From the IMG/VR virus record IMGVR_UViG_2639762987_000003: a stretch of DNA of 48,166 bases. One strand, 5' to 3'. The DNA comes from a virus (lineage: Duplodnaviria; Heunggongvirae; Uroviricota; Caudoviricetes). Under the pieces are notes generated by a model. It ran no database searches, had not been told where the DNA came from, and saw only the letters and a list, made by a program, of their open reading frames with translations. Shown here piece after piece: positions 934 through 46,185 of the stretch. A program made the translations under genes and the position numbers. Each line of letters opens with the position of its first letter. Position 1 is the first letter of the stretch.

Positions 934-1009
934 TGGTGGCCCCTACCGGATTTGAACCGATGACCGTGCGATTATGAGTCGCCTGCTCTAACCACTGAGC
1001 TAAGGGGCC
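934..1009 (-). tRNA. tRNA with CAU anticodon; acceptor, D and anticodon arms resemble E. coli tRNA-Ile2 (ileX-type), elongator tRNA-Met not excluded
   Basis: Reverse complement folds as a 76-nt cloverleaf: 7-bp acceptor stem GGCCCCT/AGGGGCC, D-arm GCTC-AGTGGTTA-GAGC, anticodon loop CTCATAA, T-arm ATCGG-TTCAAAT-CCGGT, terminal CCA encoded. Confidence 0.85.
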
Positions 1010-10772: not shown

Positions 10773-11426
10773 ATGACTATCTCTGTAGGTATTTTCAACG
10801 GAAAAGGCGGCGTAACCAAATCAACAATTGCCCGTGCTTTAGCAGTTGCTTATGCAAAGGCTGGCTGGAATGTATGCCTGATCGATATGGATGTGCTTAA
10901 CGGAACGGTAACGCGTTGGGTACAACGCAGAATGGCCAACAATATCGAACCAGCAATCGCGGCGCAGCCGTGCGGCACACCATCACAAGTCCAGAAAATC
11001 ATCGAATCAGAAGTATACGACCTGGTTATCGTCGATGGCGGTGCCTACGCATCTGAATCAGTACCGAAGCTATCTGAATTTCTGGATATGGTTATTTTGC
11101 CAACCCGATTCTCTACCGATGACCTGGAAACCACCGTTAACACTGCTCACGGCATCGTTAAAAAGGGTGTACCAATCAAGAAAATTTGCATGGTGTTTTC
11201 CGGCGCGGCTGAAAACGAAGCTGACTATATTGAAGCCCAAGAGTACCTGGCTAATACGCCATACTTTGTTGTCGATAAGTACATTCCCCACAAGCCAGCT
11301 CTGAGCAAAGCTCAGGATAAGGGCTTAAGCCTCATTGAGTGCTCATACGTTGCGCCACGCAAAAAGGCAGACGACGTTATTCAGGGGATTATCAACCAGC
11401 TTGAGGCTCTGACTACTGCCGCATAA
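10773..11426 (+). CDS. parA: ParA-family partition ATPase (small type Ib)
   Basis: Deviant Walker A motif GKGGVTKST near the N-terminus; start set at the ATG 9 nt after GGAG. Confidence 0.8.
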   Translation: MTISVGIFNGKGGVTKSTIARALAVAYAKAGWNVCLIDMDVLNGTVTRWVQRRMANNIEPAIAAQPCGTPSQVQKIIESEVYDLVIVDGGAYASESVPKLSEFLDMVILPTRFSTDDLETTVNTAHGIVKKGVPIKKICMVFSGAAENEADYIEAQEYLANTPYFVVDKYIPHKPALSKAQDKGLSLIECSYVAPRKKADDVIQGIINQLEALTTAA

Positions 11427-11457
11427 TATATAATTATAGTTTTATAGATTTATATAA
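11421..11457. promoter_or_regulatory. AT-rich palindrome element (TATAATTATA at 11429-11438) between parA and the small downstream gene
   Basis: Motif family member followed by tatagatttatata. Confidence 0.5.
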
Positions 11458-11469
11458 GAGGGGATACAC

Positions 11470-11718
11470 ATGGCCGCACCATCAAAACCACCAAAGAAGA
11501 ACAGCAAAGGCGTACCGCCATCGATCGAACAACCGCAGGTTTTCGACCCGACTGAAACGCCAACCAGAACCAAATCAGGTGGGGCACAAATGGCGTTTAA
11601 CGTCGACCCTGAATTTAAACGCGAGTACAAAACGTTCGCCAGCTCAATGGATATGTCATTGAAAGAAGTGCTGACAAAGTCTTTTGAGTTACTCAAGGCT
11701 CAATACAACCAGAAGTAA
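11470..11718 (+). CDS. Small ParG-like (putative ribbon-helix-helix) partition partner
   Basis: 82-aa protein with a Pro/Lys-rich flexible N-terminus, directly after parA; fold assignment is inferred from size and position. Confidence 0.45.
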   Translation: MAAPSKPPKKNSKGVPPSIEQPQVFDPTETPTRTKSGGAQMAFNVDPEFKREYKTFASSMDMSLKEVLTKSFELLKAQYNQK

Positions 11719-11780
11719 GAGAAGGTGACGGCCTCCAGCGCCAACTGTTGGCCGTCGCGACACAACAAGGGGAATTTGTT

Positions 11781-11930
11781 ATGTCCGAGCAACAATATAC
11801 ACGGTTACTGAAAACTCGTCTAACCGACCTCAAACGGCTGCAAGCTGGCTGCTTATTTGCCCTGCTATCCACCAGGCCAGAATGGGTACGTGAAGCAGTT
11901 CTGAAAGGCTTAATGCGCTCCAGCGTTTAA
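11781..11930 (+). CDS. Hypothetical small protein
   Basis: ATG preceded by AAGGGGAA; 49 codons. Confidence 0.35.
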   Translation: MSEQQYTRLLKTRLTDLKRLQAGCLFALLSTRPEWVREAVLKGLMRSSV

Positions 11931-11937
11931 ATTCAGC

Positions 11938-11963
11938 CATAAAAAAAGGCCCCCGAAGGGGCC
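11938..11963 (-). terminator. Rho-independent terminator for minus-strand transcription
   Basis: Stem aggcccc/ggggcct with GAA loop, followed on the minus strand by 7 U. Confidence 0.65.
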
Positions 11964-11969
11964 TAATCG

Positions 11970-12092
11970 CTACTTGCTGCTAATGTTTATCGTCACATTC
12001 AGAGCGTTATCAGTAATCTTCCAACCCTCCCCATGTGGCGTAAACAAAGCCCCAGTAACAACGATAAAAATACACATACAGTATTTTTTCAT
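11970..12092 (-). CDS. Candidate 40-aa hydrophobic peptide (possible type I toxin or small secreted peptide)
   Basis: MKKYCMCIFIVVTGALFTPHGEGWKITDNALNVTINISSK; AAGGG 8-12 nt upstream of the ATG; own terminator downstream. Confidence 0.35.
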   Translation of the reverse strand: MKKYCMCIFIVVTGALFTPHGEGWKITDNALNVTINISSK

Positions 12093-12415
12093 TGTATGGC
12101 CCTTACAGGCCGTTTCACGGCATCCCCACCGACGAAAACAACGCGAGAGCAAGCACGGCTGCTTGTGCTTGCATGTACGGCAACGGAGAATCCTCCCCTA
12201 AAGTCGGTGCCCGGGTGCGAATCGGCGGGAAGGTCCACAGGTATTTTACGATTATTTTAAGATTAGTAATAGGAAAGAAATTAAACGAAAAAACTCGTTT
12301 ATTTTCACAAAATCAGTAACCTACCCACAATCTGTGAGTTTGCAGGCACAACAAGAACCACAATTTTTTGAAGCATAATAGTGGACTATTATTACCTTTT
12401 GGGTAAAATTAACTT

Positions 12416-12516
12416 GCTGCTTGTGCTTGCGTGGTTGTTTATACAACAACGTAATGCTGAAAGGACCGCGAATCCGATCAGCACGAAAGAACCGTCCTCA
12501 ATAGGGCGGTTTTTTT
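12416..12516 (+). ncRNA. Candidate ~100-nt sRNA, 5' 15-nt complementary to the leader of the 11970..12092 mRNA
   Basis: TAAAAT -10-like element at 12404-12409; 15-mer gctgcttgtgcttgc at 12416-12430 is identical to 12158-12172; two internal hairpins; terminator 12491-12516. Confidence 0.35.
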
Positions 12517-12535
12517 GTTTCTGCCTACCAATAAA

Positions 12536-12550
12536 CCCACGCTATGTGGT
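12536..12550. promoter_or_regulatory. Operator-like CCAC-N5-GTGG site upstream of the antirepressor leader
   Basis: cccacgctatgtggt, followed by TAAAAT (12560-12565) and TTGACA (12575-12580). Confidence 0.5.
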
Positions 12551-12585
12551 TGTCTCTGTTAAAATCCCGCCGTATTGACATGAAT

Positions 12586-12682
12586 GCGCCATTGGTGGAC
12601 ACTTTCCGAGCCGTAGCAAAATCTACGGTCGGGATTGGAACCCCGTGGACACAATGGCGCATACCGCGTTAGCGGTTTTTTT
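12586..12682 (+). ncRNA. Candidate structured regulatory RNA domain (P1 c4-like antisense RNA analogue)
   Basis: 9-bp closing stem gcgccattg/caatggcgc (12586-12594 with 12652-12660) encloses a hairpin and the element GAUUGGAACC; ends with a short hairpin plus 7 T. Confidence 0.35.
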
Positions 12683-12848
12683 ATGCGTAAAGCACTGCTA
12701 CACCCAAATTATGGTGGGGCGTGCGGGGGAGTCGTAAGACTCGCCGGTTCGTCATTGTGTCCGGTAGTTCCAACCCTGCACGTCTCACCACCCAATGATT
12801 GGAACCTGACGGTGGTGAGTATCCTTAACCTTTAAGGGAATCATCACA

Positions 12849-13040
12849 ATGACAAACCTACCCCATGACTATTACGTCAACCTCGTAAAGATCCTTCTCA
12901 AGAAAGCCTCATACGCCGATAAATTCCGCCTGGCTGAAATCATCGAGCGCGAAGCTATGCGCATCGCCAGCAACGATAACGCTGTTTCTGACGCAAAAAT
13001 CTCCCTCGTAACCAAAGTAGTTATGGGAGGTGCAAAATGA
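12849..13040 (+). CDS. Small protein upstream of and overlapping ant (icd-like position)
   Basis: 63-aa ORF with AAGGGA 9 nt upstream; its stop overlaps the ant start. Confidence 0.4.
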   Translation: MTNLPHDYYVNLVKILLKKASYADKFRLAEIIEREAMRIASNDNAVSDAKISLVTKVVMGGAK

Positions 13041-14849: not shown

Positions 14850-15412
14850 AGAAATCTCCTTTTAGATATAAGGGTAAAGCAATATCGTATTAGATCTTCC
14901 TTTAGACACAACCCCCCCTCCCCCCATACAGGGTGCCCTTTACCGGAGTTCCGGCCCCTTCTCAAAAGCATCAAAAAAAGCTCGAGATCGAGTACCGGAA
15001 CTCATGCCACCAGATAGCTCCACATCGTTTCCAATGCTTCGCCGCCGTGTGCGCCCTGTGGCCCACAATCATGCCATTGGTCGTCTGATATACCTTCTTC
15101 TGCTCATAGAGCACAGGCGAGTTGTCGCACTCCTGCCTTTCTCAGACTCGACTTAGTTTAGATCGCTGTTCCTGGCTTGCGTCAGCACACTTTCCCCTTG
15201 TACGCATACCCGCGCGCCACTTCGCCCAAAAACACCGAACCCAACGAAGTGGCAAAGACAACGACGCGAGCGTGAGTCTGAAATGGGCACCAGTAAAAAA
15301 GGGGTTGCAGGCGCAAAAAGATTTGATTATCTTTAGACGCAAGAAAGCCGCCCCAATCAAGAGGTGTCTTTTTAAATCCAGCCTACCAAGCAAGATTTAA
15401 ATTTCAGACTGA

Positions 15413-15437
15413 AAACCGCCCGGCAAGGCGGTTTTTG
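15413..15437. terminator. Bidirectional rho-independent terminator
   Basis: accgcc-cggcaa-ggcggt flanked by A-run upstream and T-run downstream; follows the minus-strand HTH gene. Confidence 0.65.
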
Positions 15438-15505
15438 TCTTTCTGGCGCTTACATTACACCACCATAAAACGATCCGTAAAGGATCATTTGATCCCTTGT
15501 TCCAA

Positions 15506-15757
15506 TTATGACGACACTTTAACCTTTTCCCATACAAGGGTTTGCAGCCTTAACAGAATCGCATCTTTATCAAGGTGTGAAAGATCCTTAACCATATCGT
15601 CAAACGACAGAACGCGAATGGCCATCTCCATGACACTCGGCGGCCCCCCCTTCTCATATCGCTTATATGTAGCCAACGATATCCCAAACTCTTCGGCGGC
15701 TCGCTCCTGCGTCCAGTTCATCCCACGACGCCATAATTTCAATTCGTAACCCGTCAT
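15506..15757 (-). CDS. HTH (Cro/C1-type) transcriptional regulator
   Basis: 83-aa protein with HTH-like segment (MNWTQERAAEEFGISLATYKRYEKG). Confidence 0.55.
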   Translation of the reverse strand: MTGYELKLWRRGMNWTQERAAEEFGISLATYKRYEKGGPPSVMEMAIRVLSFDDMVKDLSHLDKDAILLRLQTLVWEKVKVSS

Positions 15758-18779: not shown

Positions 18780-19040
18780 GCAAAGCCTGCGTAAGTTAAA
18801 TAAAGAAAGTCTTAATAAAAGAAAGTGATTTTGCATTTATTTGTTTAGTGCATCTATTATAAAAAACCATTTGCATATACATATCAAAACTGTGGATAAC
18901 TTTATTAGCCGATGCCTGTAAAGGCGATATTTTTGCTGTGTTCCGGTTTAGAGAAAATTAATTTAGATTGTTTTTTGAACAGATATTTTATTGCGACGTA
19001 GATAATCCTCCGGTAAAACCGGATTCATCATTCAGGTGGG
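18780..19040. other. Candidate plasmid origin region downstream of repA (AT-rich, DnaA box 18891-18899)
   Basis: TTATCCACA (as tgtggataa on the plus strand), repeated ATTTGCAT motifs and a ccggtaaaaccgg hairpin; GC-rich hairpins follow at 18590-18780. Confidence 0.45.
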
Positions 19041-19889
19041 TTAATGTTGGAGTGATTTCCAGGTCTTTCTTAACCTGTTATAACGCTGCTCAACGAGGGA
19101 TCGTAAATATGCAAGGTCAGCTCCAGGATACATGCCATCAGCAAATTCCTGGCTAACCTCTCTAGTGATTTGATGACGAAGTTCGGCCTCTCCCTTTTCC
19201 CGAACAAGACGCGCAGCTCTCTCCGCTGCTTTCTGTTTTGCCTTTATCTCTCTGGCCGTCTTCCTCTGATGCCATACATTCTCCATCTGCTCCTGAATAA
19301 CAATACGCTTATAATCAGCCTCCGTTATCGCTTTTTTAAGCCGTTCGCTATTCTTCGCATTGAAGTAATTAAGTTTCTGGCTAACCGCACGTCTCCATGC
19401 TTGTTCAGTAATACCAACGGTTTCCAGCAGTTGATCACGAATCTCTATTTTCGCTGGCCAATACTGTTTATTCACCCGATCCCAGCGACGTTCATAATCA
19501 ATAAAACCTAACGCTTTCAGTTGCGACAACGCCCTTGTACAGCGCGTTATAGACTTGTTCCCAGCTTCGGATACGGTAGACAGGCCGCAAAAATCAGCCA
19601 ACGCCTCAGCACTGGCCAGAACCCGCTTAGAAATGATGTTTACATGGTGCAAAATCGCAGCGATCACAGCATTAATCGCCCGACGACGATGCTCGTTTAT
19701 CCGGCGCTTCCGCTCTGACGGTTGATTAACGTAGAACGCAACCTCACACGTAAGATCACGCCCATTAATGCGCTGTAAAGCATCAGATAACACCAGCGGC
19801 AGCTTGTGCGTATGGTGCTTTGGAGGCTGGAACTCCGGCGACAAATTACAAACGTAAGCTGAACGTAGAGACGGCATTGGTCTATCCAT
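19041..19889 (-). CDS. repA: IncFII-type RepA1-like replication initiator
   Basis: Segment KSITRCTRALSQLKALGFIDYE matches the RepA1 core as recalled; start set at Met 44 of the track ORF to give about 282 aa. Confidence 0.75.
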   Translation of the reverse strand: MDRPMPSLRSAYVCNLSPEFQPPKHHTHKLPLVLSDALQRINGRDLTCEVAFYVNQPSERKRRINEHRRRAINAVIAAILHHVNIISKRVLASAEALADFCGLSTVSEAGNKSITRCTRALSQLKALGFIDYERRWDRVNKQYWPAKIEIRDQLLETVGITEQAWRRAVSQKLNYFNAKNSERLKKAITEADYKRIVIQEQMENVWHQRKTAREIKAKQKAAERAARLVREKGEAELRHQITREVSQEFADGMYPGADLAYLRSLVEQRYNRLRKTWKSLQH

Positions 19890-19899
19890 ATGTTCGCTC

Positions 19900-20010
19900 T
19901 TGCGTCCACGGAAAACCAACGTATAATGGGAGTTGTCGAGGCGCCCATGGTTAGTTGTTGGTTTTCCGTGGATGTCGCAAGAAGCCCGCAGATTTATCTG
20001 CGGGCTTTTT
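19900..20010 (+). ncRNA. Candidate CopA-like antisense RNA over the repA leader
   Basis: 15-bp inverted repeat (19906-19920 with 19957-19971) followed by a perfect rho-independent terminator (19983-20010), both on the strand opposite to repA. Confidence 0.35.
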
Positions 20011-20054
20011 GTTTCCATATCTGGTCACTTTCCAACCAGACACCCACAATCATA

Positions 20055-39891: not shown

Positions 39892-41748
39892 CTATATGGT
39901 TACGCCTTTACTTATAACTCTACGGCGTCTTCTACGTATACCTGACGAGTTCTGCACATACACATTACCTCGCATTTCCTGTTCGGCAAGCCAGTTAAAA
40001 TTAGGGTTCAGAATTTCCATCGCGGCAGTTGCATAGTTACGGCAATCAAGAGGCTCGTTACGCTCGTAGACTTTTACCCACTTTTCTTTTGTCTGCCCAT
40101 TTTTATATTCAAATATTTTCTTCTCTGATAATAATCCTTTAAAGTATTCGGTATCATATCCTCTGTCAGAATCTAATGGGAAATGCATATAACCAGGACC
40201 AGGATCATGTAGTTTAATTCTTGCCATGATGGTCCCTTTACCATCATCAACCCCCAAATTAAACAACATAGCACCCACACGGTTATTATTACTTGGCTTT
40301 CCTATAAACGGTAAACCTACCCCACCACGCCCCCTGATAGAGTATATTCGCCTTGATTCTCTCGGCTTAGTAAAGCGATATACCTCTGTCGTAAAATGCC
40401 CACCAGAGTCAATACAAACGGAAGAAATCTGTAATTTTCGACCGTCACGGAATGACCAGCTACGGAGTAAGTATTCATCAAGTTGTTTCCAGACAACATC
40501 TTGTGCGGGATCACCTGGGAATATTTTATATTCTATCCCCCATGACTCCTTACCTTTTCCCCAACCGACCAATTCACAAACTAAATACGTGTCCTGTACG
40601 TCAACACCAGCACTTAACAATAAAACATCATCTGGTAAAAACTCTTCAAACCTTATTCTGCGTTGCAACAAGTATTCAGGATCGATATCGTCTTTAGCAT
40701 CCTCTTTCCATGGCTCACCCAGCTTAAGGTTAATAAACTCCATTAATCCATTTTTATCGCGGTTTCTGGTTGCTTCCGTAAATTCTTCAACCAGCTCTGA
40801 CAATGCAACCCACGGGGAGTAAAGACTGTTAATATGAAAACCAACAATACCTTTAACTCCAGTATGTTCAGCTATCCATACCCCCTTCGCCAACCAATCA
40901 ACGTCTGGTTTACCAGATCCGCGCATAATCCCGCCGCACTCACAGCACTCATATCTGGCCGTTTCCGGTAACGCCTCACCTGAATCGCTCTTATCCCATC
41001 TGACTTGCGACCATTTCATCACCTGCATGGTGCCACAACATGGGCAAGGAACATGGTAGTAACGCTGATCGGAGAGCTTAAACCACTTGTGGATTTTGCT
41101 CGTTTCCTCCAAAACAGGAGTAGAAACAAAAACTTTCTTACGATTATGAAAGTTGGTAGTACGCTGAATACCTAGTTTTAGTGGGTCGCCCTCCTGCGTC
41201 ACACCGTAACGATCAATCTCATCAGCTAACAGTATTCGAATTGGCCTGGATGCAAGACCTGCTGGGGAATTAGCACCAACAAGTGCTATATATCCACCAG
41301 CGTAATGCTTCATACGTATAGTCGTGCTGGACTTTTTGGCTGCACCGCGCCCCTCTTTCCCTTCATGCAGCTTGTGTTTCAAACCAGGGGAATATTTGAA
41401 CGTCGGATCAATACGCTCCTTTGAAAAAGCCTCAGCCGCCTCTACCGTTGGATAAATCATCAACTGAGGAGATGGCTCCTGATCTGCAAAGTAACCCATA
41501 ACATTTAGCTGTAATTCGGATTTACCAATTTGCGAGCTACATTGCATCACTACTGTTTCTGTATCAGCGTCACCAATAACATCCATTGGTTCACGCAAAT
41601 ATGGCACTCGGCTTGTACGCCACGGCCCTGGCTCTGGAGACGTTCCCGGCGCTACATGACGATACTTATCAGCCCATTCGGAAACAGTTAGCCGTGATTT
41701 AGGGCGAAGCGCACGGAAAAAAGCGGTGCTCCATACTGTTTCGCCCAT
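39892..41748 (-). CDS. Terminase large subunit, lambda gpA-like
   Basis: 618-aa protein; N-terminal region resembles the gpA terminase family (TVSEWADKYR...). Confidence 0.85.
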   Translation of the reverse strand: MGETVWSTAFFRALRPKSRLTVSEWADKYRHVAPGTSPEPGPWRTSRVPYLREPMDVIGDADTETVVMQCSSQIGKSELQLNVMGYFADQEPSPQLMIYPTVEAAEAFSKERIDPTFKYSPGLKHKLHEGKEGRGAAKKSSTTIRMKHYAGGYIALVGANSPAGLASRPIRILLADEIDRYGVTQEGDPLKLGIQRTTNFHNRKKVFVSTPVLEETSKIHKWFKLSDQRYYHVPCPCCGTMQVMKWSQVRWDKSDSGEALPETARYECCECGGIMRGSGKPDVDWLAKGVWIAEHTGVKGIVGFHINSLYSPWVALSELVEEFTEATRNRDKNGLMEFINLKLGEPWKEDAKDDIDPEYLLQRRIRFEEFLPDDVLLLSAGVDVQDTYLVCELVGWGKGKESWGIEYKIFPGDPAQDVVWKQLDEYLLRSWSFRDGRKLQISSVCIDSGGHFTTEVYRFTKPRESRRIYSIRGRGGVGLPFIGKPSNNNRVGAMLFNLGVDDGKGTIMARIKLHDPGPGYMHFPLDSDRGYDTEYFKGLLSEKKIFEYKNGQTKEKWVKVYERNEPLDCRNYATAAMEILNPNFNWLAEQEMRGNVYVQNSSGIRRRRRRVISKGVTI

Positions 41749-41753
41749 GAGGT

Positions 41754-42305
41754 TTATTCTTCCTGCTTAATAAATCGGGATTCCTGGAGCGCCTGAAGCG
41801 CAAAATTAATCTCGTCTTCAATAATGCGTTCGATCTCCCTGGCTGTTTTGCCTTCACAACGGGGAGCTGCTCTTGGAGCAATACTAAATAAGCGGCTACG
41901 CAATTCATTAGCTGCCAGAAATGCATCATCCCTGACCGCATCTTTAGCGATGAGAGAGCCTTCCTTTTCTTCAAATTCAAGGCGTTTCAGCTTTGCCTGA
42001 TAAATTTTTTCTGCGGTCTTAGCCTTGTTGAATTGCACCGCAACACCGGAAGTACCACCAGCTAATCCGGCATCATCAGCGGGTAACTCTGGTTGTTCCG
42101 AAGATATCCCATGCCCTCTTTTTCCATTTTCAGCAGATACCCCACGACCAACCTGTCGGCTCGCTTCATAAGCCGCACTGGCTTTATCAAAATCCAGCTT
42201 GCCGCTTTTCAGCACTGGAATGCGACCGGAACGACAGAGCTTCGTAACCATTGCCGGAGAAATACCTTTCCGGCGGGCAAACTCTGACTTACTGACGATG
42301 GCCAT
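41754..42305 (-). CDS. Terminase small subunit, Nu1-like (N-terminal HTH)
   Basis: N-terminal HTH-like segment (SKSEFARRKGISPAMVTKLCRSGRIP); start overlaps the upstream stop (TAATG). Confidence 0.6.
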   Translation of the reverse strand: MAIVSKSEFARRKGISPAMVTKLCRSGRIPVLKSGKLDFDKASAAYEASRQVGRGVSAENGKRGHGISSEQPELPADDAGLAGGTSGVAVQFNKAKTAEKIYQAKLKRLEFEEKEGSLIAKDAVRDDAFLAANELRSRLFSIAPRAAPRCEGKTAREIERIIEDEINFALQALQESRFIKQEE

Positions 42306-42895
42306 TACTTGCAACCATTAGCAAGATACTGAACAAATCCCTCATGCGTTTCATGCGCGTCGTGGTACTGACGATAAACATCCAGCAACAATGCAATTTC
42401 CATATCCGTCGCGGGAATACGTTCTTTATCAATAGCCAGGTACTTAATTTGAACAACAGGGGAAGAATTATCGTCTTCTTCCTGCGGCTGTTCATCGCTT
42501 AACATTTCGTCAAGCTCTGCATCATTAAACCCAAGCAGATCAATATCAAAATCATCATCCATTAACTCTTTGACTTCTTCGGCCAGAAGCTGCATATCCC
42601 AGCCAGCATTTAAGGCCAGCTTGTTATCTGCAATCCTGTACGCCTTCTTCTGTTTTTCAGAAAGGTTACTCAACCGAATCGCCGGAACTTTATCCATTTC
42701 CAGAATTTCGGCTGCTGCAAGCCGCCCATGCCCCGCAATCAGTTCATTCTTTTCATCGATCAGCACAGGATTAGTGAAACCGAACTCACGGATACTGTTC
42801 ACCAACTGTTCAACTTGCTCATCTGAATGAGTCCGTGAATTTTTGGCATATCTGAGCAGCTTACCGACTGGTAAATATTCGATTTTTAGAGCCAT
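42305..42895 (-). CDS. ParB N-terminal (nuclease-like) domain protein
   Basis: 196-aa protein; paralogous by eye to 45562..46185 (shared GHGR and KKAYR(I/L)ADN...LNAGWD segments). Confidence 0.65.
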   Translation of the reverse strand: MALKIEYLPVGKLLRYAKNSRTHSDEQVEQLVNSIREFGFTNPVLIDEKNELIAGHGRLAAAEILEMDKVPAIRLSNLSEKQKKAYRIADNKLALNAGWDMQLLAEEVKELMDDDFDIDLLGFNDAELDEMLSDEQPQEEDDNSSPVVQIKYLAIDKERIPATDMEIALLLDVYRQYHDAHETHEGFVQYLANGCK

Positions 42896-43452
42896 TTTTT
42901 AACCGCCATAACACAACAGGTTAAAGAAAAATGTTTAACTTATTGATACTAAAAGAGAAAAATGACGATCTTTTTACTCATAAAAAATCACACAAACCAG
43001 CATAATTATCTGGTTTTATTAAGTTTTTATAAGTAAAAAGGATCTTCCGATGGTGTTTTGGTTAAAAGATTGGATGTATTTGCATGATTTATAAAGATTT
43101 TTATCAAAACAGCCTTGCATTGGTTAAAGATCTGCGCGTATCTTGATGATCTAAAAGAAAATTCTCTACTTTCTTTTCACCATCACAAGCACAGCAAAAA
43201 ATCACGTTTTCCCAATATTTTTCAATGAGATGGGTAAATTTCTTTTACCGCAACTTTTAACCTAACTTTTTTCACGTTTAGCTAGCCGAACATCGGGGTT
43301 CGAATGACCCGCATCCAACGCTTTTGGCCAGAAGGACCCAATTCTGCCGGACGATGAAACGATGCTCGTGCCCACCCACAGACAGCCAGCGAGCGACGCT
43401 ACAGAACACAGTGAATACACTCTGCATAACAACACCATCAACCACACGATGA
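42896..43452. other. Long intergenic region upstream of the packaging genes; candidate packaging or regulatory site
   Basis: About 555 bp without convincing ORF; AT-rich half contains four GATC sites (about 42969, 43041, 43128, 43152). Confidence 0.3.
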
Positions 43453-44172
43453 TTAACGAGAGAAAGTCTTAGAAAGAATGTCATCAATAGCCTTTGTGAC
43501 TTCATCAGCAAACGCATCCTCACCAGCACGCAGCGCCACGCCATGCCAATCAAGACGCTGCGAATAGTTAGGTTGCTGGATAAACGTAAGGATCAACGTA
43601 GGACGCCGCCCAACGCGCTGCCAGACGCCTGGTTGAAGCGGGTTACTTGTACCAGGTCGAACAACAAAAAACTCCGTAGGCTTGCCCTGACGGCGATTTT
43701 GATGCGCATCTCGCTGAACTCTTAGGCCAGATAAGACCTGCTGTAATTGCCCCCGCGAAATATTCCCGTATTTGTCCAGCTTTGCACCGGGACCAGGAGC
43801 AAGCTGCCAGCCGTTAGGCAAATATCCACCAGCCCTTAGCGCCCCTTCTGAGCGTTTGTACTGTCGTTGTCCACCTTCGATTTGCGGAGTCAACGTTACA
43901 GGGGCTGGCGTTCCTCCCCATTCACGAGCATACACAATGGCTGTAGGATCACTCTTCTTTGCGGCCAAAACGTAAGTAGAGTTCTGAATCCACGGCGTGG
44001 GCCTGTCAAATACCCGATTAATTTCATTCTTAATCGCAGCCTGAGAAGCCTTTGCCGTTCTGGTTGCCGCAAGCGCCATTGCGAACGGCAATTCGCGTTC
44101 TTCAAGGCGCTGGAGTTGTCGTTGAATATCCTGAGAAGAAAAATCCATCTTTATCTCAATTCTGTCAGCCAC
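43453..44172 (-). CDS. Hypothetical protein
   Basis: 239-aa ORF between the methyltransferase fusion and the intergenic region. Confidence 0.45.
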   Translation of the reverse strand: MADRIEIKMDFSSQDIQRQLQRLEERELPFAMALAATRTAKASQAAIKNEINRVFDRPTPWIQNSTYVLAAKKSDPTAIVYAREWGGTPAPVTLTPQIEGGQRQYKRSEGALRAGGYLPNGWQLAPGPGAKLDKYGNISRGQLQQVLSGLRVQRDAHQNRRQGKPTEFFVVRPGTSNPLQPGVWQRVGRRPTLILTFIQQPNYSQRLDWHGVALRAGEDAFADEVTKAIDDILSKTFSR

Positions 44173-44188
44173 CAGCGCCTCCTACACA

Positions 44189-45568
44189 CTACTTAATCAA
44201 CGGCCGGAAAGCCGCCAGCACATCATCAGATCGTCCGATTGTTGAACCACCAGGCAACGGCAACTCAAACTCAAAACGAACAGCTTTCTCCAGACTCGCC
44301 CAACTAAGGGAATCATCGTTAATGACGTGCAAATACCAGCTCTTACAGTTGAATATTGACCGCTTAATCCTGAAACCATGTACACGACACAACTGCTTCA
44401 CTTCATCATCAGAGTGAAACTTCTGGTAAAACCAGTGCCCCTTCCGGTACAACGCGGTAAAACCGTTATGATCAATAAAATAAAGCCGGCTTTTGGAACT
44501 CGCCGCTTGTGTTTGTTTCAGGACGGTTTCCAGCTCTCCACGGCTACGGCCAGAAAAGAATATTGACCCACCAGCTTTACACAAGCCTTTCAGAACCGTC
44601 AGAACGGACCATTCAGCCTCGACACTATCGACCGAGTTCAAAACGCTATCGCAAATCACGTAGTCGTAACGCCCTCGCGTTTTTAAGTCGTCCACCAGCG
44701 TATCAATCATCCGGTTTGTTGCGGTCCTATCCAGAGTGTTTCCAGCGCCCTTACGGCGGAAAAGCTCGAGATCATGCAGGTTATATCCCTTTGCCCTGAG
44801 CATTCGCGCGTAGTCTCCCTGCCCCGAACCAAAATCAATTCCTCTTGGCGTCTTGGCAATGATCGGGAGGATCAACGACTCATACAGGTTTGATTTCAGG
44901 CTGCCACCATTACGCAACCGCATAAGCTGCGCATACGTCTGGATGTATGTTGTTTTCTCCAGATGAGAATACTCAAATACACCATAAGTTTTATTCAGAT
45001 AACTTTGGTATTTTTCCTTCTCAACATCAGGGATCACAAACACCGTTAGCGGTGTGCGCGTCATCTTCGCTGCTAATGCATACTGAGCACAGTGAATAAC
45101 CTCGCCAGACTGAGTAGCAACACAACCACCCCACGGACCATACTTGATAACCAGTTCCGCTATGTTCTTTCGAACATATGCCATTTTCGCGCGCATATTG
45201 CCTGAGATCTGGCTTGCCGATACCTGAACAAAACCATGCTTATCTTCCAGACCGGACACCCTGCAACGCTCATCTCCGCTATCAAAATCCGTTCCGTTAT
45301 GCAGTTGGTTAAACCGTACTTCGTCGTATACCGTCGTTTCACAGGGCAACACATACACCGCAGCACGCGTTATTCCCAACTTACGTAGCGCCTTCGTCCT
45401 TTGGTGTCCCGCCACCAGCAAATCGCCGCGCACTATCAATGGCTTCACAAGCCCCAGCTCCCTGACGCTTTCCGCCAGCCTCGCAAGATCATCCTCACCG
45501 ATAAAACGCGGGTTATATTCCGCGCCGCGTAGGTGCGTTATGTCGTAATTGAGGTGAAGCATCAGCAC
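44189..45568 (-). CDS. ParB-like N-terminal domain fused to class I SAM-dependent methyltransferase
   Basis: N-terminal ParB-like segment (LVAGHQR) and methyltransferase motif I (IDFGSGQGDYARML). Confidence 0.65.
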   Translation of the reverse strand: MLMLHLNYDITHLRGAEYNPRFIGEDDLARLAESVRELGLVKPLIVRGDLLVAGHQRTKALRKLGITRAAVYVLPCETTVYDEVRFNQLHNGTDFDSGDERCRVSGLEDKHGFVQVSASQISGNMRAKMAYVRKNIAELVIKYGPWGGCVATQSGEVIHCAQYALAAKMTRTPLTVFVIPDVEKEKYQSYLNKTYGVFEYSHLEKTTYIQTYAQLMRLRNGGSLKSNLYESLILPIIAKTPRGIDFGSGQGDYARMLRAKGYNLHDLELFRRKGAGNTLDRTATNRMIDTLVDDLKTRGRYDYVICDSVLNSVDSVEAEWSVLTVLKGLCKAGGSIFFSGRSRGELETVLKQTQAASSKSRLYFIDHNGFTALYRKGHWFYQKFHSDDEVKQLCRVHGFRIKRSIFNCKSWYLHVINDDSLSWASLEKAVRFEFELPLPGGSTIGRSDDVLAAFRPLIK

Positions 45569-46185
45569 ACCTCCCCAGCCAGCAATGCGGATACAAATCC
45601 GATATAGCTGCCATTATCATCAACATAACGAGACACCGCGCAGTCAAAACGATCCGCTTCCTCATCCGTTGCCGGGATTTTATGACCTCCAAATGACAGG
45701 TACTGAACTTTTACGCCTGATTTGGCCTCATCCTTCTCAAATGGGATATCCATACCCTCTGTGTCATCGTAGACCGCCGCACTCAATAAGTTATCCAGTT
45801 CGCGCTGAGTAAAACCAATTGAGTCCAGAGCAAAATCATCGGCCGCAAGATCTGCAAGCTCCGCGCTTAACAACTCTTCATCCCAACCAGCATTCAGCGG
45901 AATACGGTTGTCGGCCAGACGATATGCCTTCTTCTGATTCTCCGTTAGCCCTTCCAGAACAATGCAGGGAACCTCATCCATCCCCAACTGAGTGGCCGCA
46001 GCAATTCGACCATGACCAGCAATTACAACGTTGTTCTCGTCTATCAGGATCGGATTAGTCCATCCGTACTCCTGTATGCTGGCAACAATCTGATCTACCT
46101 GCTCCACGGAGTGTGTGCGAGCGTTCTTTTCATAACCAATCAACACAGAAAGTGGTAAAGAAACCACATTAAGATGTTTTGTCAT
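45562..46185 (-). CDS. ParB N-terminal (nuclease-like) domain protein, paralogue of 42305..42895
   Basis: 207-aa protein with the same conserved segments as 42305..42895. Confidence 0.65.
   Translation of the reverse strand: MTKHLNVVSLPLSVLIGYEKNARTHSVEQVDQIVASIQEYGWTNPILIDENNVVIAGHGRIAAATQLGMDEVPCIVLEGLTENQKKAYRLADNRIPLNAGWDEELLSAELADLAADDFALDSIGFTQRELDNLLSAAVYDDTEGMDIPFEKDEAKSGVKVQYLSFGGHKIPATDEEADRFDCAVSRYVDDNGSYIGFVSALLAGEVC

Follow-up and report, generated by a model that had tools for sequence, protein, structure and literature searches.

The window analyzed here, 48,166 nucleotides of DNA from the IMG/VR virus record IMGVR_UViG_2639762987_000003, contains a gap without genes at positions 42896-43452, which we identify as the lambda-type cos (the cohesive-end packaging site) of a temperate myovirus kept as a circular plasmid of ~48 kb. 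The gap very probably holds such a site, with cosN, the segment that forms the cohesive ends, at 43298-43309. On the minus strand, the layout is cosQ, a 23-nucleotide (nt) spacer, cosN, a CTAGCT/A-tract box that resembles the I2 segment of lambda, and an AT-rich cosB that extends to the gene of a ParB/Srx-like protein. The element is of a known kind, and its packaging site, newly mapped to the base, is mechanistically unsurprising. The features of the cos core are:

43333-43339, minus strand: cosQ-like heptamer GGGTCCT, presumed packaging-termination signal
43298-43309, minus strand: cosN, the 12-nt cohesive-end segment GGTCATTCGAAC, with nicks between 43310 and 43309 and between 43298 and 43297
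43263-43297, minus strand: conserved box after cosN, CCCG-N8-CGGCTAGCTA-A-run, at the position of the lambda I2 segment

Virion ends and the cos core

The position of cosN follows from where the database records of relatives begin and stop. Three near-identical Yersinia phages, vB_YpM_39, vB_YpM_41 and vB_YpM_44, show 95-98% identity across the gap region, and their assemblies reveal two break points exactly 12 nt apart that flank GGTCATTCGAAC. The records of vB_YpM_39 and vB_YpM_41 start with GGTCATTCGAACCCCGATG, that is, with GGTCATTCGAAC, and end with GCGTTGGATGCG, the last bases of which are GGATGCG, so that their break lies between 43310 and 43309. The record of vB_YpM_44 starts with CCCGATG and ends with GGATGCGGGTCATTCGAAC, the last 12 nt of which are GGTCATTCGAAC; its break lies between 43298 and 43297. 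Joining the two ends of each record yields the exact window sequence. This pattern does not come from an annotation rule, because the start is 414 bp before the first gene, and it is what the assembly of linear DNA bearing 12-nt cohesive ends should give. The preliminary description had proposed that virion ends be mapped, and, as read from the records of these near-identical phages, the ends fall inside the gap.

The closest relatives outside the enterobacterial group are the Vibrio phages X29, phi 2, XM1, PVP-XSN, R19R and Rostov 7, and linear records of this group, with a large terminase subunit (TerL) 63-65% identical to that of the window, break at the homologous spot. The PVP-XSN record starts with GGTGCTCGCGAC, the X29 and R19R records end with 11 and 10 bases of GGTGCTCGCGAC, respectively, and the XM1 record carries the 12-mer at both ends, as a filled-in 5' overhang would give. 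By analogy, the overhang of the element in the window is probably a 5' overhang. The paper on XM1 makes no mention of cos.

The heptamer GGGTCCT, which we take to be the genetically defined cosQ of lambda and which Wieczorek and Feiss are said to have described in 2001, occurs once in the window when both strands are counted. Between it and the left nick downstream are 23 nt, the same number as in lambda; in the Vibrio phages and Serratia phage vB_SspM_BZS1 (hereafter BZS1), the distance is 22-24 nt. The heptamer is invariant in all aligned relatives, and the composite GGGTCCT-N21-CGGGT was found in none of 100 shuffles. A role in the termination of packaging is presumed from this likeness to cosQ, a segment of 7 bp that is highly conserved (PMC4669245).

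Downstream of cosN, the box at 43263-43297 is conserved in the enterobacterial relatives, and CG.CTAGCT, which resembles lambda CGCGGGTTTTCGCTATTTATGAAAA, stands at the same place in the Vibrio phages, BZS1 and many distant loci that encode a TerL of the gpA family. The order in the window is thus GGGTCCT (43339-43333), 23 nt, the 12-mer, CCCGATGTTCGGCTAGCTA and then GGTTAAAAG.

The same arrangement extends well beyond the close relatives. We gathered 73 diverse gpA-TerL loci from many phyla by TerL alignment, and in these the heptamer is found 19 times in the sense-strand interval that lies 500-1200 nt ahead of terL, against 1.2 occurrences expected (15-fold, P ~1e-16); a scan of genome contigs with a narrower alignment, of the small terminase subunit (TerS), gave no match. 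Anchoring on GGGTCCT exposes the same downstream pattern in most of the loci that carry it. Lambda's cosQ and its spacing appear to be ancient, and the comparison also hints that a conserved part of TerL may be what reads cosQ. The conserved heptamer, its spacing and the CTAGCT box could serve as a simple predictor of cos sites in uncultivated phages.

As a separate observation, the whole core (GGGTCCT, 19-25 nt, CGGGT..., ~12 nt, CCCG, ~8 nt, CTAG) recurs 590-1140 nt upstream of terL in loci L050, L056, L059, L062, L064, L074, L077, L079, L086, L112 and others, from phyla that include Bacillota, Armatimonadota, Gemmatimonadota and Cloacimonadota.

To trace conservation within the gap, we aligned 19 distinct versions of it from phage-like IMG/VR contigs whose TerS is 83-99% identical. 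The core from cosQ to the CTAGCT box (43270-43342) is almost invariant, with a conservation of 0.83 against 0.32 just upstream, and the AT-rich half consists of conserved islands scattered in diverged DNA. The DNA just upstream is the spacer at 43343-43452 (minus strand), which runs from the stop codon of the preceding gene to cosQ; its mean identity to seven diverged relatives is 0.32 with many indels, it is unalignable, and we assign no function to it.

The AT-rich half and its comparison with known cos sites

The two halves of the gap differ in composition, with a GC content of 29% in 42896-43260 and 52% in 43261-43452. The features of the AT-rich half, and of the three proteins encoded directly downstream of it, are:

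43254-43262, minus strand: repeat F1 GGTTAAAAG, +48 from the left end; identity 1.00
43242-43249, minus strand: repeat F2 GGTAAAAG; identity 0.89
43173-43181, minus strand: repeat F3 GGTGAAAAG (GGTAAAAAG in relatives)
43122-43129, plus strand: repeat R1 GGTTAAAG, inverted
43060-43067, plus strand: repeat R2 GGTTAAAA, inverted; identity 0.67, the weakest copy
42919-42926, plus strand: repeat R4 GGTTAAAG, inverted; identity 0.89
42897-42904, minus strand: repeat F5 GGTTAAAA, overlapping the ribosome-binding region of the ParB/Srx-like gene
43031-43044, minus strand: left half-site GATCCTTTTTACTT, including the GATC at 43041
42967-42979, minus strand: right half-site GAGTAAAAAGATC, including the GATC at 42967
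43003-43015, minus strand: site resembling that of integration host factor (IHF) at the center of the inverted repeat, AACCAGATAATTA here and AATCAGAYAATTA in relatives
43082-43171, no strand: 90-bp segment dispensable for phage viability, holding the GATC sites at 43129 and 43148 and repeat R1
42305-42895, minus strand: protein of 196 amino acids with a ParB/Srx N-terminal domain, the first gene after cos (ParB_N 3.8e-8, phrog_620)
41754-42314, minus strand: TerS, with a likely ATG at 42305 and 183 amino acids (phrog_57 1.3e-41)
39892-41748, minus strand: TerL, gpA family (GpA_ATPase 7.1e-76, GpA_nuclease 1.1e-84)

Of the seven copies of the motif GGTTAAAR in the window, five fall in the 367 bp of the AT-rich half, for which shuffled sequences give a mean of 0.08 and never reach five (0/2000). 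When slightly degenerate copies are included, the sense strand carries forward copies at +48, +61, +129, +331 and +406 and inverted copies at +181, +243 and +384, together with the left half-site of an inverted repeat at ~+266 (43044-43031). Columns that belong to these motifs are 85% conserved, against 52% in the rest of the AT-rich half, a level that none of 2000 random sets of blocks reached; the contrast is inflated, because some boundaries, those of F3, the half-sites and the IHF-like site, were drawn after the alignment had been seen.

The first repeat keeps a similar position across lineages: it lies at +48 here and in BZS1, the Vibrio phages have it at +50, and R3 of lambda is at +53. 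Each lineage has a motif of its own, such as GGTAACA, GGTTAACA or CGTTTCC. The region of the TerS recognition helix differs along with the motif, and relatives with the same motif share the N-terminus of TerS. Residues 5-55 of the window's TerS are predicted to form a strand-helix-helix-wing-helix arrangement (predicted local distance difference test score ~88). We judge from these sequence patterns that the repeats are, on balance, probably read by TerS, and that F1 may be the equivalent of R3, the primary TerS site of lambda. A locus with the same intergenic DNA and a TerS only 49% identical (L036) seemed to offer a natural experiment and was rejected, as its terS and terL reading frames are disrupted.

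Further from cosN, two copies of the motif make up a conserved inverted repeat, which reads GATC(C)TTTTTACYY ... RRGTAAAAAGATC. As a 31-nt hairpin it folds well in the window (z = -5.65), and we rejected this candidate, as the inner stem is lost in relatives. Across eight diverged sequences, the 13 outer pairs are kept, with one compensatory change, and the inner part has diverged; because only these outer pairs persist, two protein half-sites are the better reading. Between the half-sites, which occupy +266 to +343 and are thus not adjacent to the +48 site, lies the IHF-like site, whose sequence AACCAGATAATTA has one mismatch to the IHF consensus WATCARNNNNTTR. Most relatives match the consensus perfectly and carry an A/T-rich tract upstream of it. 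An involvement of IHF in wrapping this DNA may be proposed from the match.

The segment 43082-43171 is cleanly deleted in the plaque-forming phage vB_YpM_44 (OR545055.1, locus L038, 1-312), which therefore represents a ready-made natural mutant for the mapping of cosB. Considering repeats, half-sites and the IHF-like site together, the AT-rich half is best read, from its sequence, as an extended cosB, a putative region of recognition and bending.

These elements can be assembled into a plausible course of packaging. TerS would bind the GGT(T/A)AAAR repeats, the invariant copy at +48 playing the part of lambda R3, and host IHF, aided by the intrinsically AT-rich DNA, would help to wrap the region. 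The gpA-type TerL, anchored there, would nick the two strands 12 nt apart; the DNA would then be packaged toward the terminase and head genes, in the direction of decreasing window coordinates, until the motor reached another cosQ-cosN further along the concatemer and packaging stopped. After infection, annealing of the 12-nt ends would restore the plasmid.

The likeness to lambda is extensive. Both have a gpA-type terminase, the same heptamer at the same distance from the left nick, a 12-nt stagger, a conserved A/T-rich box after cosN and a first repeat at ~+50. Both also have repeats in the two orientations and a cos directly upstream of the terminase genes that is crossed by the late operon. 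The putative IHF site between inverted copies resembles the R3-I1-R2 array of lambda (PMC4669245), although here it stands far from cosN. The repeat differs, however, being GGT(T/A)AAAR here and CGTTTCC in lambda, and cosB is ~370 bp long here but ~120 bp in lambda. By sequence, moreover, TerS is not detectably a member of the Nu1 family.

Serratia phage BZS1 is the relative whose ends were determined directly, as 12-nt 5' ends GCATTGCGCGCC, by PhageTerm together with junction polymerase chain reaction and sequencing (PMC7556043). Its TerS is homologous to that of the window (26% identity, E 2e-10) and its gpA-family TerL is 37.5% identical; GGGTCCT lies 24 nt before the nick, CGTCTAGCTA follows the overhang and GGTAACA repeats begin at +48. 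In contrast, BZS1 has only three repeats, spanning ~30 bp directly before terS, and lacks the intervening ParB/Srx gene, the distal inverted repeat and the GATC cluster; it is also an integrating prophage.

The Vibrio phages are closer in gene order (cos-ParB/Srx-terS-terL) and in protein identity (TerL 63-65%, TerS ~41%, ParB/Srx ~60%), and their core consists of GGGTCCT, 22-23 nt, GGTGCTCGCGAC and CCCG...CGTCTAGCTA, followed by GGTTAACA repeats from +50. They differ in having five direct repeats in ~100 bp, with only ~140 bp ahead of the first gene, and no conserved GATC pair.

N15, whose cosB is of a simple kind, is likewise a phage-plasmid with a gpA/Nu1-type terminase and a conserved cosQ, cosN and I2, and in that phage the critical TerS site occupies the R3 position with accessory copies further off (PMC4669245). 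Unlike the element in the window, N15 has lambda-like cohesive ends (10/12), a linear plasmid prophage and an accessory site inside terS.

Several points weigh against the reading of the gap as a lambda-type cos with cosN at 43298-43309. The ends come from records of relatives and not from virion DNA of this element, and the Yersinia phage records, which originate from one laboratory, are flagged circular; a literature search gave no paper describing vB_YpM_39, vB_YpM_41 or vB_YpM_44. The right-hand break varies from 10 to 12 nt in the Vibrio group, so the length of the overhang is uncertain by 1-2 bases. The cohesive-end sequence GGTCATTCGAAC agrees with lambda GGGCGGCGACCT at only 3 of 12 positions, and the right nick is flanked by CC, lacking the CG that is conserved in lambda-like phages and that here flanks the left nick. 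The distance from cosN to the first gene, 414 bp, is 2-5 times that in lambda, the Vibrio phages and BZS1, and the ParB/Srx gene, not terS, follows cos, whereas no such gene separates cos from terS in lambda. Finally, TerS has no match to the Pfam family Phage_Nu1, and a BLASTP comparison with lambda Nu1 gave E 0.39. A Foldseek search of the TerS fold was also without significant match (the best among small domains, at E >1, being Xis and BldC), an outcome that reflects the long coiled coil that dominates this protein.

According to Feiss and colleagues, lambda-like phages have cohesive ends similar to GGGCGGCGACCT and CG flanking both nicks (PMC4669245). The cos described here would work like that of lambda, yet it is not "lambda-like" by its cohesive-end sequence. 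Additional TerS comparisons gave a weak match in a profile comparison, in which residues 7-35 align with residues 3-31 of Nu1 (E 8.7e-4, probability 23%), and no meaningful match between the TerS sequence and solved structures.

Alternative roles of the distal part

Because of the 414-bp distance and the ParB/Srx gene that comes next, the distal part of the AT-rich half may do something besides packaging. One alternative keeps cosQ and cosN as they are and holds that the region ~42896-43230 mainly controls transcription of the ParB/Srx-terS-terL operon, with the half-sites and the IHF-like site as operator or activator site instead of a portion of cosB. Neither the Vibrio phages nor BZS1, with a cosB of 60-140 bp, have anything that corresponds to this distal part; regulated promoters, too, typically show inverted half-sites ~50 bp apart with an IHF site between them, and the last repeat reaches into the ribosome-binding region of the ParB/Srx gene. 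Nevertheless, a consensus scan of 42700-43600 on both strands detected no sigma-70-like promoter and no intrinsic terminator. Since the genes on both sides of the gap run in the same direction, read-through, as in lambda, would be sufficient for their expression. Furthermore, the half-sites share a GTAAAAAG core with the repeats proximal to cosN, which argues for one binding protein throughout. We therefore consider a control region unlikely.

A second alternative assigns the repeats to the ParB/Srx protein, which, in place of TerS, would bind them as a parS-like array, load beside cosN and assist or regulate packaging, or help plasmid maintenance. The gene is the first after cos both here and in the Vibrio phages, where a homologue occupies the same position in X29, XM1 and R19R. 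Two more paralogues lie just upstream of cos, and both lineages with the gene carry GGTTAA-type repeats. The comparison with BZS1 speaks against this assignment, as its GGTAACA repeats stand between cosN and terS with no ParB/Srx gene there. Many distant gpA-TerL loci likewise carry lineage-specific short repeats at a similar distance downstream of the cos core, although the genes between cos and terL in these loci were not examined. ParB_N is the only domain recognized in the protein, which shows no helix-turn-helix DNA-binding domain, and the plasmid ParA (10758-11426) is encoded 32 kb away. Features of a parS-type centromere are also not found, the repeats being 8-9 bp long and non-palindromic next to a protein with ParB_N only, and a literature search produced no paper that ties ParB-like proteins to cos cleavage. 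On this evidence, a ParB/Srx-bound array seems quite unlikely.

The GATC sites deserve separate consideration. The preliminary description reported an AT-rich half with four GATC sites within about 190 bp, and the sites at 42967, 43041, 43129 and 43148 do span 185 bp in DNA of 29% GC. The cluster is real and locally unusual, though not unique in the window: four GATC sites within 190 bp occur at two places, the other being 15394-15583, and dinucleotide-preserving shuffles of the AT-rich half reach four in 6 of 2000 cases. The window as a whole contains 136 GATC sites, compared with 168-213 expected, at a mean of 2.8/kb. Among the 19 gap versions, the site at 43041 is kept in 18 and that at 42967 in 15, but those at 43129 and 43148 in only 4 and 3; the losses at the two conserved sites are GATT or GAAC (4/19) and CATC (1/19). 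As the two variable sites are poorly conserved and deleted in vB_YpM_44, the cluster as a whole is not a required unit. The two conserved sites form the outer ends of the inverted half-sites and flank the IHF-like site. The expectation that the cut would lie in the GATC-rich half did not hold, since cosN and cosQ, at 43298-43339, belong to the GC-rich half.

The cluster nevertheless calls to mind the pac site of the phage-plasmid P1, a packaging site in which clustered GATC sites flank an IHF site. The terminase of P1 is PacA/PacB, its packaging is of the headful type and gives terminally redundant DNA, and methylation of the seven GATC sites in its repeated hexamers is needed for cleavage; Sternberg and Coulby reportedly described this methylation-gated packaging in 1990. 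Dam methylation of the GATC cluster could similarly gate recognition of cos or binding of the terminase here, in a replicon that also has to persist as a plasmid, a proposal that we regard as improbable. Besides the local excess of sites and the P1 precedent, the proposal draws on the position of the conserved sites, which abut the half-sites (GATC-CTTTTTAC ... GTAAAAA-GATC), and on two enzyme genes of the element, one for an MT-A70 methyltransferase and one for a ParB_N-methyltransferase fusion. However, two of the four sites are non-conserved and absent from the viable deletion phage, and even the conserved sites are lost in some of the 19 relatives. Their conservation is explicable by membership in the half-sites, no GATC occurs at cosN or at the +48 repeat, and the MT-A70 gene is frameshifted in the closest plasmid, p142_C. 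P1 also differs in its ends and terminase, since the element described here has fixed ends, a gpA-type terminase and no more than two conserved GATC sites. Sensitivity of the gap to methylation, which the preliminary description had raised in view of an encoded "Dam-like enzyme", is at most weakly suggested, and, by analogy with P1, methylation may have a role at 43041 and 42967.

A broader version of this proposal would make the distal cosB a second regulated module, in which the GATC-abutting half-sites around the IHF site tie recognition of cos to Dam methylation, to the ParB/Srx protein or to both; judging from the arrangement of these sites, we would call it a long shot. If true, it would amount to a P1-pac-like gate on a lambda-type cos, by which the cos of a plasmid-borne prophage stays intact and is not engaged at the wrong time.

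The enzyme called Dam-like is this MT-A70 methyltransferase, encoded at window positions ~46.4-47.0 kb. In p142_C, its gene is frameshifted (L037 16307-16893), which suggests that the enzyme may be non-essential.

The preliminary description had left the choice among a cos site, a pac site and a lytic origin. Fixed ends, cosQ and the homology of the core favor cos, and a headful pac site is contradicted by ends that are fixed 12 nt apart. That the AT-rich half is a lytic or plasmid replication origin, with the repeats as iterons and the GATC sites serving sequestration, is hardly credible: low GC content, short repeats, an IHF-like site and clustered GATC sites are common to many origins, yet 42896-43452 contains no DnaA box, no gene for an initiator, a helicase or a primase is close by, and repA (19041-20018) is found 23 kb away together with a DnaA box (18891-18899) and AT-rich repeats (18796-18826). 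GGTTAAAR is absent near repA, the cumulative GC skew falls steadily across the window with no turn at the gap, and relatives carry counterparts of the repeats at matching positions in their cosB.

Neighboring genes and the phage-plasmid

The gap comprises 557 bp without a gene, has minus-strand genes on both sides and is bounded by an open reading frame (ORF) of 239 codons for amino acids and the ParB/Srx-like gene at 42305-42895 (minus). This agrees with the earlier account of a gene-free region upstream of the ParB-like, TerS and gpA-like genes. No other gap in the minus-strand late block is as long; a still longer stretch poor in ORFs, at 11.4-13.0 kb, is not part of it. The genes that precede the gap in the direction of transcription are:

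45562-46185, minus strand: ParB/Srx-like protein, upstream of the gap
44189-45568, minus strand: ParB_N-methyltransferase fusion, upstream of the gap
43453-44172, minus strand: protein of 239 amino acids, the last ORF before the gap

Three paralogues with a ParB/Srx N-terminal domain thus flank cos, all on the minus strand and one of them fused to a methyltransferase (42305-42895, 44189-45568 and 45562-46185). Downstream of TerL, we find a lambda-family portal and a ClpP-type protease.

Annotation of the gap itself is sparse. The PGAP annotation of p142_C, which is 99.6% identical, places no feature between the two genes that border the gap. Gap DNA is present in 72 E. coli records, and 39 of the 40 listed carry no feature under the match; in the remaining one, a hypothetical protein is annotated over the gap. 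Small ORFs of 33-91 amino acids within the gap were rejected as genes, given that the DNA upstream of cosQ is non-conserved with indels and that those of the AT-rich half lie within the 90-bp segment that vB_YpM_44 lacks. A search of 42700-43650 against Rfam at permissive thresholds returned only a chance match to a plant microRNA (E 0.16), so that the region contains no known RNA element.

The 72 records that carry the gap DNA come from a set of 5426 complete E. coli genomes. In 71 of the 72, the match is on a plasmid, mostly of 47-52 kb among those listed, and one such plasmid belongs to the quality-control strain ATCC 25922. The annotation of plasmid p142_C lists RepA and ParA, a toxin-antitoxin pair and lysis genes, alongside a myovirus structural module that is complete. 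Given this location of the gap DNA on plasmids, together with the RepA, ParA and myovirus genes of p142_C, we conclude that the window represents a phage-plasmid. Near-identical genomes have been deposited as the Yersinia phages vB_YpM_39, vB_YpM_41 and vB_YpM_44 and as Escherichia phage vB_EcoM-613R2. The group also infects Yersinia pestis EV76, and vB_YpM_44 was isolated on Y. pestis. Literature searches for this phage group, its cos and vB_EcoM-613R2 gave no paper; a paper on vB_YpM_HQ103 was set aside, as that phage is P2-like and unrelated.

The base-level coordinates of cosQ, cosN and the candidate cosB repeats provide true virion ends for the annotation and re-orientation of existing records. 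Any replicon that acquires ~0.45 kb of this cos is predicted to be mobilizable, and defined fragments could be used in cosmid-style vectors or transduction tests.

Elsewhere in the window, the stretch 11426-13037 (1.6 kb, no ORF of at least 90 amino acids) contains three Rfam matches above the gathering score: ryfA at 11942-12238 (minus, 141.8 bits), isrK at 12610-12682 (plus) and the C4 antisense RNA at 12707-12795 (plus). Because C4 is the immunity RNA of P1 and P7, this myovirus phage-plasmid seems to carry a P1-like, immI-type RNA switch. Just beyond repA (minus), on its 3' side, two adjacent AT-rich direct repeats of 15 nt (18796-18826) accompany a perfect DnaA box, TTATCCACA (18891-18899), and the segment 18796-18899 is likely the plasmid origin. 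Finally, a tRNA gene at 937-1009 (minus; Rfam, 67 bits), annotated as tRNA-Ile in p142_C, lies between the lysis genes and the MT-A70 methyltransferase.

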